NCBI GenBank assembly: GCA_002724555.1
Contig: PBOZ01000059.1
Location: forward strand, 66,414 to 130,413
Direction: 5' to 3'
Length of the DNA stretch: 64,000 bases
Source of the DNA: Rickettsiales bacterium
GTDB lineage: Bacteria; Pseudomonadota; Alphaproteobacteria; UBA8366
Position numbers and translations under genes: made by a program. This document shows, piece by piece, positions 4,909 to 19,752 of the stretch (within the stretch, counting starts at the first letter, position 1; the number at the start of each line of letters is the position of its first letter). A model generated the notes under the pieces. That model ran no database searches and was not told where the DNA came from. It saw only the letters and a list, made by a program, of their open reading frames with translations.

Positions 4909-5907
4909 ATGCTCGAATACCTCGTGCGCCGCATTCTCATCATGATCCCAACCTTGTTGGCAATCAGTCTGATTGTGTTTCTGATCATTGAGCTACCGCC
5001 GGGCGACTACCTGGAAAGCTATATTTCCGAACTGCAGGCGCAGGGAGAGGAAGTCGACCAAAAGCATATTGAATTCCTTCGCGAGCAGTATGGCTTTGAT
5101 AGGCCGGTTATGCTTCGGTATTGGGAATGGATTACTGGCATGATAGTCGGCGATTTTGGTTACTCCTTCGAGTACCGATTACCGGTCTCTGAGGTAGTCG
5201 GTGACCGATTATTCCTGACAATTTTGGTTTCTATAGTAACGATCATCTTTACCTGGATCATTGCCTTCCCAATTGGCCTCTATTCTGCCACACATCAATA
5301 CAGTTGGGGTGATTACGGGCTTACATTCATCGGGCTTCTTGGCCTCGCGACGCCCAACTTTCTGTTGGCCCTGATTATGCTTTATTTTGCCAATGTCGTA
5401 TTTGGGACCTCAATTGGCGGACTAATGGATCCTGAATATTTGGATCAGCCATGGAGCTGGGATAAGGCCGTTTCGGTACTTGAGCACCTTTGGATCCCTG
5501 TGGTTGTGATTGGCACCTCTGGGACGGCCGGCATGATCCGGCGACTCCGTGCCAATATGCTTGACGAACTGCAAAAACAATACGTCACGACGGCGCGGGC
5601 CAAGGGCCTACCACCTTTGCGTCTGTTGCTGAAATATCCACTACGTAACGCCATCAACTTTTTTATTGCCGATATCGGAAGTCTCTTGCCTAATATCATT
5701 TCCGGCGCTGAGCTTGTGGCCGTCGTTCTATCCCTGCCGACGACCGGGCCCGTATTAATTGCGGCGTTACAGAGCCAGGATATGTATCTCGCTGGCTCTT
5801 TCTTGATGTTCTTAGCATCTTTGACTGTGATTGGAGTGCTTATCTCAGACATTCTGCTCGGGTGGCTTGATCCGCGCATCCGTCTCGCAGGGGGGGCTGA
5901 GAAATGA
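4909..5907 (+). CDS. ABC transporter permease (DppB/YejB-like)
   Basis: 332 aa and multi-TM. N-terminus MLEYLVRRILIMIPTLLAISLIVFLII and the motif YVTTARAKGL are typical of BPD_transp_1 peptide permeases. Confidence 0.9.
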   Translation: MLEYLVRRILIMIPTLLAISLIVFLIIELPPGDYLESYISELQAQGEEVDQKHIEFLREQYGFDRPVMLRYWEWITGMIVGDFGYSFEYRLPVSEVVGDRLFLTILVSIVTIIFTWIIAFPIGLYSATHQYSWGDYGLTFIGLLGLATPNFLLALIMLYFANVVFGTSIGGLMDPEYLDQPWSWDKAVSVLEHLWIPVVVIGTSGTAGMIRRLRANMLDELQKQYVTTARAKGLPPLRLLLKYPLRNAINFFIADIGSLLPNIISGAELVAVVLSLPTTGPVLIAALQSQDMYLAGSFLMFLASLTVIGVLISDILLGWLDPRIRLAGGAEK

Positions 5908-7076
5908 GCGTTGTTAACGACGGTGGCCGTAAGCTCGAGCATTATGTCTCTGAGGCTTCGTTTGATCCGCATTCTGTGGAGGCCCTGACGCCGGAACAGG
6001 AACGCTATTACATGGCGTCACAATGGCAGTTAATGTGGTGGAAATTCATCCGTCATCGACTGGCATTGATATCTGGTGGCTTTCTGCTTCTGATGTATGG
6101 ATCAATTCTAATTAGTGAATTTTTAGCCCCTTATAATCTGCATACTCGGAACATCAATGCGATCTTTGCACCGCCCCAATCGGTAAATTTTTTTCATGAA
6201 GGTGAATTCAAAGGGCCGTTCGTTTATGGCACTCATTATCGGCTTAATCTCACGAATTTACGGAGGGAATATACGGAAGACACGTCTAAGGTTTTTAAGA
6301 TTAACTTCTTTTGTCGGGGTGATGAGTATAATTTTTGGGGTCTGACGACAGGTAGTTTGCATCTCTTTTGTGCCGAAAAAGGCGGTACACTTTTTCTTCT
6401 CGGTACTGACCGTCTCGGGCGCGACATTCTGTCCCGCATCATGTATGGGGCACGAATTTCGCTCACAATTGGACTGATTGGAATTGTGATGAGCTTCGTC
6501 CTTGGCATGGTAATTGGTGGTATTGCGGGTTATTACGGTGGCATTATCGACTTAGTTGTCCAACGAATGATTGAGATACTGCAATCTTTCCCCCAAATTC
6601 CGCTATGGATGGCGTTGTCCGCTGTTTTGCCCGTGACCTGGAGCCCGCTGCTGATCTATTTTGGGATCACCGTAATCTTAGCAATGCTGGATTGGACAGG
6701 TTTGGCCCGTGCCGTTCGTTCAAAACTCTTAGCGCTGCGTGAAGAGGATTATTGCCTTGCCGCACAACTAATGGGGGCCAAACCGAAGCGGATTATCGGC
6801 CGTCACTTGATGCCGGGATTTATGAGCCATCTGATAGCGTCTGCCACACTTTCAATCCCGACGATGATACTTGGAGAGACGGCTTTGTCCTTTCTTGGTC
6901 TTGGACTGCGTCCACCAATTACGAGCTGGGGAGTGTTGTTGAACGAAGCACAGAACATCAGTGTTGTAGCGCTATATCCGTGGCTTATTTTACCGGTCGT
7001 TCCGGTGGTGTTGGTAATCTTAGCGTTTAGTTTTTTAGGAGACGGTCTGCGTGATGCGGCGGATCCATATAAATAG
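5904..7076 (+). CDS. ABC transporter permease (DppC/YejE-like)
   Basis: 390 aa. ATGA overlap with the upstream permease. Carries LGTDRLGRDILSRIMYGARISL and the EAA-like segment YCLAAQLMGAKPKRIIGRHLMP. Confidence 0.9.
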   Translation: MSVVNDGGRKLEHYVSEASFDPHSVEALTPEQERYYMASQWQLMWWKFIRHRLALISGGFLLLMYGSILISEFLAPYNLHTRNINAIFAPPQSVNFFHEGEFKGPFVYGTHYRLNLTNLRREYTEDTSKVFKINFFCRGDEYNFWGLTTGSLHLFCAEKGGTLFLLGTDRLGRDILSRIMYGARISLTIGLIGIVMSFVLGMVIGGIAGYYGGIIDLVVQRMIEILQSFPQIPLWMALSAVLPVTWSPLLIYFGITVILAMLDWTGLARAVRSKLLALREEDYCLAAQLMGAKPKRIIGRHLMPGFMSHLIASATLSIPTMILGETALSFLGLGLRPPITSWGVLLNEAQNISVVALYPWLILPVVPVVLVILAFSFLGDGLRDAADPYK

Positions 7077-7787
7077 TCAGAGCGCAGAGGTATAACGCTC
7101 AAATTTCCGGGTACAGATGTCCTTCAACTGTGCTGGCATGTAGGAATAGTACCGGCCTTTCTGCGATTGCGACGTTGAAGTAAAGCATCCATTGTTTTTA
7201 AAATCACTGAGCGCGTTGATCGCTATGTCTATGGTCAATTCGGTTGCCGACCGTCGAAGATGGGATAAAGGCATACCGCGTTGAAGTGGAACTGGCCGGC
7301 GGTCGATAATACCGCCTGCATCAAGTTCCGGTTCAACTCTGTGCATCGTCATGCGCAAGGCGTTGAAGTCGCCGTGGAATAAAGGCCAGAGGTGGCAGTC
7401 GAGGCCGCGGTAAGCCTCAGGATCGCCGTTATGAAAATTGGCGCTTCCATCTGGGCATTGGTCTAAAACTGCCTTGGAAAGGCGCCCCGTCCCGTAAACC
7501 AGCAAGACATCAGGTTTCAAGCTTCGCAACACCGTAATGGCTTCTGGATCGTTTAGATTTTCGAATGATTTAACCTTTGCTATTGCATCGAATGCGGGAG
7601 CGTTTCCATCGTACCAATGATCTCGTTCATGGGCCATACGTGCCTCATCGAGTGGATGGGCTGTTGGATATGGTGGTGGTGGATCACGCGATTCGATTAG
7701 AACCTGAGCGATTTGAAACTGCTCCTGAATTTTTTCAACGAAATAGCGTCGTCGAACAGCGCCTGTTGTGAGGACAACGATCTGCAT
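7077..7787 (-). CDS. Formyltransferase-like protein (Formyl_trans_N fold only)
   Basis: 236 aa. PDVLLVYGTGRLSKAVLD...ANFHNGDPEAYRGLDCHLWPLFHG...MHRVEPELDAGGII mirrors the Fmt/PurN/ArnA N-domain pattern (N-x-H...RG...D-x-G). There is no C-terminal Fmt domain. Its stop abuts the stop of the convergent permease gene (7076/7077). Confidence 0.6.
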   Translation of the reverse strand: MQIVVLTTGAVRRRYFVEKIQEQFQIAQVLIESRDPPPPYPTAHPLDEARMAHERDHWYDGNAPAFDAIAKVKSFENLNDPEAITVLRSLKPDVLLVYGTGRLSKAVLDQCPDGSANFHNGDPEAYRGLDCHLWPLFHGDFNALRMTMHRVEPELDAGGIIDRRPVPLQRGMPLSHLRRSATELTIDIAINALSDFKNNGCFTSTSQSQKGRYYSYMPAQLKDICTRKFERYTSAL

Positions 7788-7918
7788 TAATTAAAATTAG
7801 TTTGACGGGCCATACGGAGATGTCGTGCATATTTTGTTACCGATCTTTCTATAGATATGGCATATGGTTAACAAATTCATACGGTGTGCAGAAAAATCGT
7901 ATTCTGCCACTTTGTTTT

Positions 7919-7928
7919 GGGGGGGGGG
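7919..7928. repeat. G10 homopolymeric tract in a divergent promoter region
   Basis: Ten consecutive G at 7919-7928, read directly. It lies 26 nt upstream of the ATG at 7955, between a TTGTTT (7912-7917) and a TATTTT (7934-7939) hexamer. Confidence 0.95.
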
Positions 7929-7954
7929 ACAATTATTTTTGATCCAGGTGTCAC

Positions 7955-9175
7955 ATGACTGATCGCATGGACGGCGTCAGAGTGTTGATTTATAGCCATG
8001 ATACGTTCGGGCTGGGGCATTTGCGGCGTTGCCGTACGATTGCGCATGCATTAGTGGAAAAATACAAGGGGTTATCCGTCTTAATTCTGTCGGGCTCACC
8101 AATTATCGGCAGTTTTGACTTCCGTGCCCGTGTTGACTTTGTGCGCATTCCTGGCGTGATTAAGCTTTATAATGGTGAATATACGTCGCTTGGCCTTCAT
8201 CTCGACCTGTCGCAGACGATGGCGATCCGTGCATCGATCATTCGGCACACTGCGGAAATGTTCGCGCCTGACCTATTCATCGTGGATAAGGAACCTCTAG
8301 GGCTGCGCGGCGAGCTGCAGGAAACACTATCGATAATGAAATCCCAAGGGACGGCCTTGGTCTTGGGATTGCGTGATATAATGGACGAACCGATATTGTT
8401 GCGCCGTGAATGGAAATCGAGGAACCTCCTGCCAATTTTGGAAGGCGTATACGACGAAATATGGGTATATGGTCATCACAAGTTTTGGGACCCTTTAGCA
8501 GAAATGGACGTTCCTGCTTCTGTCCGCGAGAAAATGACTTACACGGGATATCTTCGGCGCACTGTTCCGAAAGATACAAAATTGCCACCTGCAATTAATT
8601 TAGACCAACCTTATCTTTTGGTTACGGCTGGAGGCGGTGGTGACGGCGACCAGATGATGGATTGGGTCTTGCGTGCCTATGAGTTGGGGACCGAGCTCAT
8701 GCGCGCAGTGCTGGTGCTTGGCCCATTTATGCGGTCAGAAATGCAGACCGAAGTGCGCGATAGGGCGTCACAACTTAGCCGTGTCGAAGTTCTTACCTTC
8801 GAGACACATCTCGAGTTGATGATGGAGAAGGCTGCGGGTGTCGTTGCGATGGGCGGCTACAACACATTTTGTGAAATTCTATCGCTTGACAAACCGGCGT
8901 TGATTATGCCGCGGGTCGCGCCACGGAAGGAACAATTGGTGCGTGCGGAGCGGGCAGCTGAAATGGGCATCGCTCGTATGTTCGATCCATCGTCGCCGGG
9001 CAGTTCCCTCGAGGCTTTTGTCGAGGCACTCAAGAACCTACCCAAACAACCTAAACCGTCGAGAGTAATGCTCCCGGGTTTCATGGACGGTATCGAAAAA
9101 GTTGGAGAGTTAGCGGGAACACATTTCCATTCCCGTATTGATGATGGCCTGTCACTTGTTGAAACGGGTGGGTAG
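7955..9175 (+). CDS. Glycosyltransferase, GT28 C-terminal-domain / COG4671-like (MurG-fold)
   Basis: 406 aa with an AGGTG SD. N-terminus is VLIYSHDTFGLGHLRRCRTIAHAL, the glycine loop is LLVTAGGGGDGDQM, and the C-terminus is MGGYNTFCEILSLDKPALIMPR. This is the typical GT-B MurG-like layout. Confidence 0.75.
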   Translation: MTDRMDGVRVLIYSHDTFGLGHLRRCRTIAHALVEKYKGLSVLILSGSPIIGSFDFRARVDFVRIPGVIKLYNGEYTSLGLHLDLSQTMAIRASIIRHTAEMFAPDLFIVDKEPLGLRGELQETLSIMKSQGTALVLGLRDIMDEPILLRREWKSRNLLPILEGVYDEIWVYGHHKFWDPLAEMDVPASVREKMTYTGYLRRTVPKDTKLPPAINLDQPYLLVTAGGGGDGDQMMDWVLRAYELGTELMRAVLVLGPFMRSEMQTEVRDRASQLSRVEVLTFETHLELMMEKAAGVVAMGGYNTFCEILSLDKPALIMPRVAPRKEQLVRAERAAEMGIARMFDPSSPGSSLEAFVEALKNLPKQPKPSRVMLPGFMDGIEKVGELAGTHFHSRIDDGLSLVETGG

Positions 9176-9184
9176 GGTAGCCTC

Positions 9185-19100: not shown

Positions 19101-19650
19101 GACCGAGGTCCAGGAATTCTTGAACGCCAGCCGGATTGAGAACTGGTATCATCGCATCCATAAAGGCGTATTCAGTCTGATGCGCTGTTGTTGAAGACTT
19201 ACAGGTGTGATCATCGCCAGCCAAGAGCAATACTCCACCCGTAGGAGAAGAGCCAAACAAGTTACCATGCCGAAGGATGTCGCCAGAGCGGTCAACGCCA
19301 GGTCCCTTTGCATACCACATGGAAAACACACCGTCGTAATTTGCACCGACGGACATATCCAATTGCTGGGTGCCGAGAACGGCAGTTGCCGCGAGATCTT
19401 CGTTTACGCCTGGTTGGAAACGTATGTGGTGATGCTCAAGAAATTTTTTTGCCTGCCAGAGTTGTTGGTCAAGCATGCCAAGGGGCGATCCGCGATAGCC
19501 AGTAATAAAGCACCCGGTATTTAACCCGGCTGCTTCGTCACGTCGACGTTGCATCATCGGGAGGCGCACCAGAGCTTGCGTCCCTGTTAAAAAGACGCGC
19601 CCAGATTCGAGTGCATACTTATCGTCTAGCGTAACCGACGCCAACGTCAT
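16159..19650 (-). CDS. Indolepyruvate:ferredoxin oxidoreductase family protein (fused IorA/IorB)
   Basis: About 1163 aa from ATG 19650, with a GGGGGTGA SD. N-terminus is MTLASVTLDDKYALESGRVFLTGTQALVRLPMMQ. Also carries a TPP-binding region GDGTYYHSG and a Cys-rich ferredoxin-like segment CEGCGDCSVKSNC...CNKDYSC. Confidence 0.93.
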   Translation of the reverse strand: MTLASVTLDDKYALESGRVFLTGTQALVRLPMMQRRRDEAAGLNTGCFITGYRGSPLGMLDQQLWQAKKFLEHHHIRFQPGVNEDLAATAVLGTQQLDMSVGANYDGVFSMWYAKGPGVDRSGDILRHGNLFGSSPTGGVLLLAGDDHTCKSSTTAHQTEYAFMDAMIPVLNPAGVQEFLDLGLYGWALSRYSGCWTAFKLIAETVDSSASVYVDPHRVDIITPDDFEMPPDGLNIRYPDTPLEMEERLHRHKIHAVLAFARANKLDRSIIDGPNRRFGIVTCGKSYLDVRQALEELGINEDYARAIGLSIYKVGMTWPLEPDGIRNFCEGLDEVLVVEEKRPVIENQLKEQLYNWTADKRPRVIGKYDETGQWILPSIGELTPTQIARVIAKRLERFHSSSQLNDQIKFLQSREDMLRSNAEGFARTPYFCSGCPHNSSTKVPEGSRALSGIGCHFMAQWMERNTATFTHMGAEGVPWVGISPFTKEEHVFANIGDGTYYHSGLMAIRQAIAADVKMTYKILFNDAVAMTGGQPHDGPLTVPRITQQVMAEGASRVVVVTDEPDKYPRDAGFAEGTKVYHRDDLMKVQKDLRGESGVSVLVYDQTCAAEKRRRRRRGTFPDPHKRVMINDLVCEGCGDCSVKSNCLSVVPKETEFGRKRTIDQSACNKDYSCVNGFCPSFVTVHHTDLKKPKTSAQEVTVPDIFEALPEPELPSTEEPYAMLVTGIGGTGVVTIGAIIAMAAHIEGKGCSVLDMVGLAQKGGAVLTHIRVARKPEDLHAVRIAAGGADMMLGCDLVTAASVDALSKIAPGSSRAIINSHETITGDFTRNPDLDFPGEELHQAITKVVGSDRTEFLEATKLATTLLGNSIASNMFMLGCAWQKGLIPISMEAIFQAIELNGVAADANKQAFTWGRRAAHDLPLVRKLAITDNNTPTETVAVPEDLVNLVERRVHFLTKYQGRKLARRYKELVVKVQTSESHRTPGEEALSKTVARYYFKLLAYKDEYEVARLHSETDFLADIADKFDEGYKLKFHLAPPLLARRDADTGLPKKIEVGEWILPIFRMLAKMKFLRGTPFDPFGYMKERKHERQLISEYETTIEALLRDLTRENHETAVKTAALPEQIRGYGHVKENNITLAKARQMELLAEFYNPSPKSDIAAE

Positions 19651-19752
19651 GATTTCACCCCCCAAGAAACTGCAAACTTATCATGCAAGGTACCTTGTAA
19701 CGTCGCAATTTCAAATCGAATCGGATCCCGTGAATAGAATTTGGCAAAAGAT

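Follow-up and report, generated by a model that had tools for sequence, protein, structure and literature searches.

Does a run of ten guanines in front of a glycosyltransferase (GT) operon of an uncultured marine alphaproteobacterium work as a phase-variation switch, or is it an ordinary repeat whose length happens to drift? The question was raised by the initial annotation of the 64-kb stretch of DNA analyzed here (the window), the sequence of which is present in sequencing runs from marine and seawater metagenomes. We found that a length-polymorphic repeat indeed lies upstream of glycoconjugate genes, as that annotation proposed, but its placement in a promoter spacer was not borne out, and other homopolymers of this genome vary too. 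The tract is hence a weak candidate for phase variation. We consider it reasonably probable that the tract is a slippage-prone homopolymer of the leader or spacer, which was expanded in one strain and has at most a modest effect on expression.

The G10 Tract and Its Genomic Setting

The features of the locus are summarized in Table 1. The ten G residues (C10 on the minus strand) occupy exactly the coordinates first assigned to them, in a 167-bp divergent gap (7788–7954) between the formyltransferase-like gene on the minus strand and the GT operon on the plus strand, and 26 nt separate the end of the tract from ATG 7955. It is the sole G or C run of at least 8 in the window, the remaining long runs being A or T. 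A homopolymer scan of the 64 kb, whose base composition is 49% G+C, gave a G7 inside a permease gene (5890–5896) as the next longest G/C run and no C run of at least 7. The number of G or C runs of at least 10 expected by chance per 64-kb window is 0.09 if bases are taken as independent and 0.06 with a first-order Markov model, so that G10 is unusual locally and unremarkable across a scan of many windows.

The tract is located 17 nt upstream of the Shine–Dalgarno (SD)-like element and approximately 130 nt from the start of the minus-strand gene. An in-frame TGA (7940–7942) between the tract and the first GT gene means that the tract cannot code for this protein, and a coding role was ruled out. 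A mechanically called upstream open reading frame (ORF) starting at ATG 7864 was also rejected; it is not preceded by an SD sequence, and its ATG is replaced by CATAAG in half of the relatives. No upstream ORF in the gap is conserved among the relatives.

Table 1. Coordinates of the features at the G10 locus (positions in the window).
Feature	Position	Strand	Basis or remark
G10 homopolymer	7919–7928	+	Longest allele seen of a length-polymorphic G run
SD-like AGGTG (7946–7950) and ATG 7955 of the first GT	7946–7957	+	Sequence reading
Formyltransferase-core gene, divergent (Pfam Formyl_trans_N)	7077–7787	−	Nearest solved relatives: ArnA N-domain, sugar N-formyltransferases
Three-gene GT operon	7955–11624	+	Domain content; synteny kept in relatives
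First gene, GT28-C/MJ1255-like GT	7955–9175	+	
Second gene, GT4 GT	9185–10441	+	
Third gene, second GT28-C-like GT	10398–11624	+	
Hyper-divergent block (formyltransferase and three GT genes)	about 6700–11800		DNA 85–93% identical to L016, versus ~98% in both flanks
Conserved non-coding block TTTTGTTACyGAyCyTTCyATAGATATGkCATAwGgTTA..AAATCAC	7832–7882		10-locus alignment
Best conservation-based sigma-70-like promoter	7840–7868	+	−35 cTGACc (CCGATC in the window) at 7840–7845, 17 nt, −10 TAwGgT at 7863–7868
TTAACA-18-AAAAAT	7868–7897	+	9/12; sole plus-strand promoter-scan site in the gap; −35 overlaps the end of the conserved block
Terminator-like six-bp hairpin, then T-rich CACTTTGTTTT, directly before the tract	7888–7907	+	In the minimum-free-energy (MFE) fold
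Alternative weak promoter CTGCCA-18-GACAAT, tract in spacer	7904–7933	+	8/12; sequence reading, speculative
Initially proposed promoter TTGTTT-16-TATTTT	7912–7939	+	7/12, not conserved

The first GT, for which no solved-structure relative was found by sequence, is 77–89% identical in nine loci of a genome collection (metagenome-assembled genomes labelled Rhodospirillaceae, Rickettsiales or Alphaproteobacteria). These loci share one gene order, consisting of a peptide permease, the formyltransferase, the three GTs, a 227-aa ORF and a long ABC-like protein. This last protein is a 1033-aa ABC-exporter-like sequence (12438–15539, minus strand) that is convergent to the GT operon and carries a CRP/cNMP-binding-like region at its C-terminus; it matches the NCBIfam models for MsbA and CRP, is kept in all relatives, and is 98.6% identical in the sister strain represented by contig L016.

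A comparison between the window and L016 gave protein identities of 83–95% in the block of the formyltransferase and GT genes (FT-GT block) and 98–99% for its neighbours. A segment of approximately 5 kb with such sharp bounds points to the replacement of alleles by recombination, or to diversifying selection acting on the glycan genes, and by these identities divergence or recombination between strains is concentrated in the glycan block. Strongly strain-divergent loci are often ones at which selection favours variable expression. The divergence of the FT-GT block makes variable expression biologically plausible without demonstrating it, and the excess over the flanks counts against our preferred explanation.

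Length of the Tract in Sister Populations

Logan contigs from 21 DNA runs were placed on the locus, and related loci were read too; being assembled, these contigs are blind to minor length variants within a population. The comparison with related strains, which the initial annotation had recommended, revealed that the tract differs in length, with G10, G8, G7, G6, G5T, G5C and shorter forms at the same site. The flanks of the varying alleles in public marine metagenome contigs are often ~99% identical. The G10 allele was present in the source run X1 only, and its allele-specific words occurred in no other indexed run. G8 was detected in X5 and X10, and the X5 contig exhibited no further difference over 153 nt. 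The sister-strain contig L016 carries G7 with T3 replacing T4, while G6 is carried by the related locus L001 and by a diverged lineage in X2, a run that also has a G5 contig. The commonest form is G5T (X4, X6, X8, X12, X15, X17, X20 and X35, together with the RNA run X30), followed in our list by G5C (X3 and X9) and an allele one base shorter than G5T (X13, X14 and X16). Tracts of at least 8 were hence seen in just 3 of ~19 samples, and most samples carry G5T or G5C. X2, X7 and X12 showed either a pair of alleles or a break, as mixtures of strains could produce. The contigs of X7 are interrupted between 7923 and 7929, precisely the point at which a mixture of G5T and longer alleles is expected to split a de Bruijn graph.

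Beyond L001, more distant relatives lack the tract, and its region could be aligned among the closest relatives only. An exact-pattern scan of metagenome contigs with GATCCAGGTGTCACATGACTGA gave no matches, and a scan with the pattern of the conserved block gave 12 loci, among which four were true relatives, including the G7 strain. In the compared region of the locus, indels were confined to the tract and an A5 run. The tract site is clearly an indel hot spot.

These data are consistent with the view that G10 arose in one strain through expansion of a short G run, which is G5–G8 in sister populations. Its length would change by replication slippage, like that of other intergenic homopolymers of the organism, and 8–10 G would be long enough for hypermutability. 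The occurrence of G8 and G10 on nearly identical backgrounds suggests that this slippage was recent and fast, and fast change of this kind counts against the explanation we prefer. The tract resembles a contingency locus in that G10 is an uninterrupted poly-G/C run of at least 8 and close strains differ in its length. Classical contingency loci maintain long tracts across strains. The rarity of long tracts here, together with the short and interrupted commonest form, is unlike such loci.

An error of assembly or sequencing is hardly credible as the origin of the long allele, although all of the G10 evidence apparently comes from a single sample with a depth of just ~9.5; the true tract would then be shorter or heterogeneous. 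G10 was obtained in four assemblies (ENA metaSPAdes, Logan, NCBI CENY and JGI), which probably derive from the same (Tara-type) sample, so that the allele is robust to the assembler without having been independently re-sampled. The Logan assembly of the source run yielded a single clean contig that passes through G10 without a branch, although minor variants could be hidden in assembled contigs. Assembly in a de Bruijn graph of 31-mers does not add bases to a run of 10 nt, which argues against an artefact. The discrete G8 and G7 alleles of independent runs further make a long tract at this site plausible.

A Conserved Promoter-Like Block Upstream of the Tract

In the initial annotation, the tract filled the spacer of a promoter made of TTGTTT and TATTTT. 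The two hexamers are present at the positions given (7912–7917 and 7934–7939), and a 16-nt spacer (7918–7933) lies between them. Viewed as a promoter, they agree with the consensus at 7 of 12 positions, which is below our scan threshold of 9/12, and the pair was not returned by the scan. None of 10 related loci contains either hexamer, the substitution 7935 A>G removes the key A of the proposed −10 element in X2, X15, X20, X30, X35 and L016, and the majority G5T allele would leave a spacer of 12 nt. A conserved promoter-like block is found upstream of the tract instead. Judging from these sequences, the tract does not appear to lie between functional −35 and −10 hexamers of the kind known for porA and opc.

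This conserved block of ~50 nt, located 40–90 nt upstream of the tract, is nearly invariant in the 10 loci, the flanking proteins of which are 58–89% identical. It is the only conserved non-coding DNA of the gap, the rest of which is unalignable across these loci. The block contains the palindromes CCATA-GA-TATGG and TATG-N-CATA, with CCATAGATATGG as a palindromic stretch within it, and the two small palindromes in the spacer of the promoter-like element could serve as an operator. The block is probably a promoter/operator shared by the divergent formyltransferase gene and the GT operon. No Rfam family, riboswitches included, matched the gap even at E ≤ 5. The idea that the block is a repeated regulon motif was rejected, as no second copy exists in the window and each relative has one copy per locus.

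The promoter within the block (Table 1) was positioned by inference from the invariant alignment columns C71, G73, A74 and C76 for one set and T94, A95, G97 and T99 for the other; T, A, G and T are invariant at positions 1, 2, 4 and 6 of the −10 hexamer in the 10-locus alignment. If transcription starts from this promoter, or from the TTAACA-18-AAAAAT site at the end of the block, the tract would be situated ~15–50 nt into the transcript. The tract would thereby occupy non-conserved DNA between the promoter/operator block and the ribosome-binding site of the operon, a location that makes it most likely a part of the 5′ leader and not of the core promoter.

A true transcriptional phase variation, or a "dimmer", would require that the tract belongs to the spacer of a working promoter of the GT operon or to a combined divergent promoter region, where slippage switches or tunes the expression of a strain-variable glycan. 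The spacer would be that of TTGTTT-16-TATTTT or that of CTGCCA-18-GACAAT. The latter pair deserves attention, since a −10-like gAyAAT comes immediately after the tract in the window (GACAAT), in the G5T alleles (TACAAT), in L016 (GATAAT) and in L001 (GACAAA), and its distance from CTGCCA is 16, 17 or 18 nt for G8, G9 or G10, so that the 16–18-nt register is attained for G8–G10 only. The persistence of this element in close lineages and the register at G8–G10 make a tract-tuned secondary promoter conceivable at low probability, which counts against our preferred explanation. Other points in favour of the switch are that the tract is 8–10 long in three samples with near-identical flanks, that an RNA contig (X26) starts at 7938, that the FT-GT block is hyper-divergent between strains, and that inter-strain polymorphism of simple sequence repeats (SSRs) is the criterion by which phase-variable genes were nominated in Neisseria (PMC5084427). 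Nonetheless, both hexamer pairs are under the 9/12 threshold, and the CTGCCA-GACAAT pair with 8/12 is not statistically distinguishable from chance, because even 9/12 sites are no commoner than in shuffled sequences. TTGTTT and TATTTT are absent in the relatives and mutated in sister populations at 7935, while the majority G5T allele gives a spacer of 12–14 nt, which means that the operon must normally use another promoter. The conserved block upstream offers a promoter-like element, the RNA contigs X30 and X28 span the tract, and the source sample gave one clean G10 contig. We consequently regard a promoter switch as unlikely.

A narrower version, to which we give only a slim chance, is a nascent contingency locus, in which the expansion from G5–6 to G8–G10 in one sub-lineage gave rise either to a secondary promoter tuned by slippage or to a leader that depends on tract length. 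Such a locus would represent SSR phase variation in bacterioplankton of the open ocean. In the promoter variant, the expansion would bring CTGCCA into the 16–18-nt register with gAyAAT, and pressure from phages or grazers was perhaps the driver.

Transcription and Folding of the Probable Leader

Metatranscriptome contigs were found over the position of the tract, namely X30 (7850–8046, carrying the G5T allele at a depth of 6.3) and X28 (7864–8016), both of which are unstranded and shallow and may include carried-over DNA. Two further RNA contigs, likewise unstranded and shallow, end within the gap; X26 starts at 7938, and X25 runs from the formyltransferase gene to 7870. The contigs that cross the tract hint at a location in the 5′ leader and do not amount to a mapped start.

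A leader location raises the possibility of a post-transcriptional effect, in which the length of the G repeat sets the pairing of a C/U-rich small RNA or the local RNA structure, and thereby gives graded translation or stability of the GT mRNA, by analogy with the action of RepG on tlpB-hp0102 in Helicobacter pylori. The RNA contigs over the tract, the promoter-like block upstream and the 17-nt distance to the SD element would all suit such a mechanism, for which the H. pylori leader with its variable repeat of 6–16 G, controlling a co-transcribed lipopolysaccharide glycosyltransferase, provides a precedent (PMC8295292). The predicted folds and the SD accessibility, however, are almost equal for all alleles; the window contains no C run of at least 7; and most populations have a short or interrupted run at the site, with none in more distant relatives. 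Such regulation by a G repeat is thus very improbable. The folding models argue against a length-dependent RNA switch in particular, as the leaders with G5T, G5C, G6 and G8–G11 are predicted to keep the same architecture with an SD accessibility of 0.30–0.42.

The hairpin that directly precedes the tract (Table 1) was considered as an attenuator and rejected. Nine sites of this type were counted versus 6.0 ± 2.7 in shuffled sequences, and the stem carries a mismatch in L016; the hairpin is probably a chance, non-conserved feature.

Length Variation of Other Homopolymers

An alignment of the window with L016 over ~14 kb contains 6 indels, and 4 of these are in homopolymers: the tract itself (G10/G7), A5/A4 at 15621, A9/A7 at 15996 and C6/C8 at 19657. 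Among homopolymers, poly-G/C runs are most prone to indels, and variability climbs steeply with run length (PMC3315296). By this comparison, non-coding homopolymers in these genomes ordinarily change in length. Since the A9, A5 and C6 runs vary as well, polymorphism alone is no sign of a selected switch, and we regard the tract as a slippage-prone homopolymer of the leader or spacer for which the effect of length on expression would probably be small or graded, if there is any.

Some of these runs have features of their own. The A9 run (15989–15997) lies upstream of the ABC-like gene, in an AT-rich gap of 620 bp, and is A7 in L016 (3-nt indel). The C6 run corresponds to a G6 on the minus strand (19648–19663, as GGGGGGTGAAATCATG), 7 nt upstream of ATG 19650 of an indolepyruvate oxidoreductase gene, and is G8 in L016. 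It overlaps the likely ribosome-binding site (SD region) of this gene, for which the TTG start at 19665 in the ORF list is probably too far upstream. The G7 run of the permease region, located at the overlap of two peptide-permease genes, stays G7 in L001, L002, L003 and L008 and represents a stable control from a coding region.

Comparison with Known Repeat Systems

In Neisseria meningitidis, the poly-G of porA and the poly-C of opc lie between mapped −35 and −10 boxes, and the length of the tract sets expression (van der Ende 1995; Sarkari 1994, both as described in PMC5084427). Like them, the present tract is a G/C homopolymer that closely precedes a gene for an envelope component, varies in length between strains and is presumed to mutate by slipped-strand mispairing. 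It differs in that the hexamers on either side are weak, lack conservation and are mutated in sister populations, the spacer of the majority allele would be 12 nt, and a conserved promoter-like block exists 40–90 nt upstream. The leader repeat of H. pylori tlpB-hp0102 (6–16 G), which is targeted by the small RNA RepG (PMC8295292), resembles our case in having a strain-variable G repeat, with 5–10 G here, that probably resides in the 5′ leader of a glycosyltransferase operon. Unlike in that system, most populations here carry a short or interrupted run, and the leader location is hinted at by shallow, unstranded RNA contigs. If the tract is in the leader, tlpB-hp0102 with RepG would be its nearest mechanistic analogue.

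The TA repeats of Haemophilus influenzae hifA/hifB are placed in overlapping, mapped divergent promoters (van Ham 1993, as described in PMC5084427). Here too a simple repeat occurs in a region common to two divergent genes; in contrast to this dinucleotide, it is a homopolymer, distant from the start of the minus-strand gene and outside the conserved block. From generic non-coding SSRs of variable number (Siena et al. 2016, PMC5084427; Lin and Kussell 2012, PMC3315296), which include intergenic homopolymers of strain-variable length, the tract differs in nothing essential, and this is the best-fitting category. The host is a further difference, being a free-living marine bacterium and not one of the host-adapted pathogens of the usual SSR studies. 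Our search of the literature turned up no account of SSR phase variation in free-living marine bacterioplankton.

Implications

If the tract does tune the operon, stochastic switching of surface glycans would no longer be confined to host-adapted pathogens but would reach free-living marine plankton. It would then be linked to the strain-level hypervariability of the glycan block and could matter for escape from phages or grazers. As the evidence stands, the main value of the locus is that of a worked negative control, in which a real inter-population poly-G polymorphism coexists with conserved regulatory DNA elsewhere. Because other intergenic homopolymers vary and the conserved regulatory DNA lies apart from the tract, the polymorphism alone should not be read as a switch. 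Two by-products of the analysis, the conserved promoter/operator-like block of 50 nt and the hyper-divergent FT-GT block of 5 kb, may tell us more about this glycosyltransferase cluster, which is widespread and uncharacterised.
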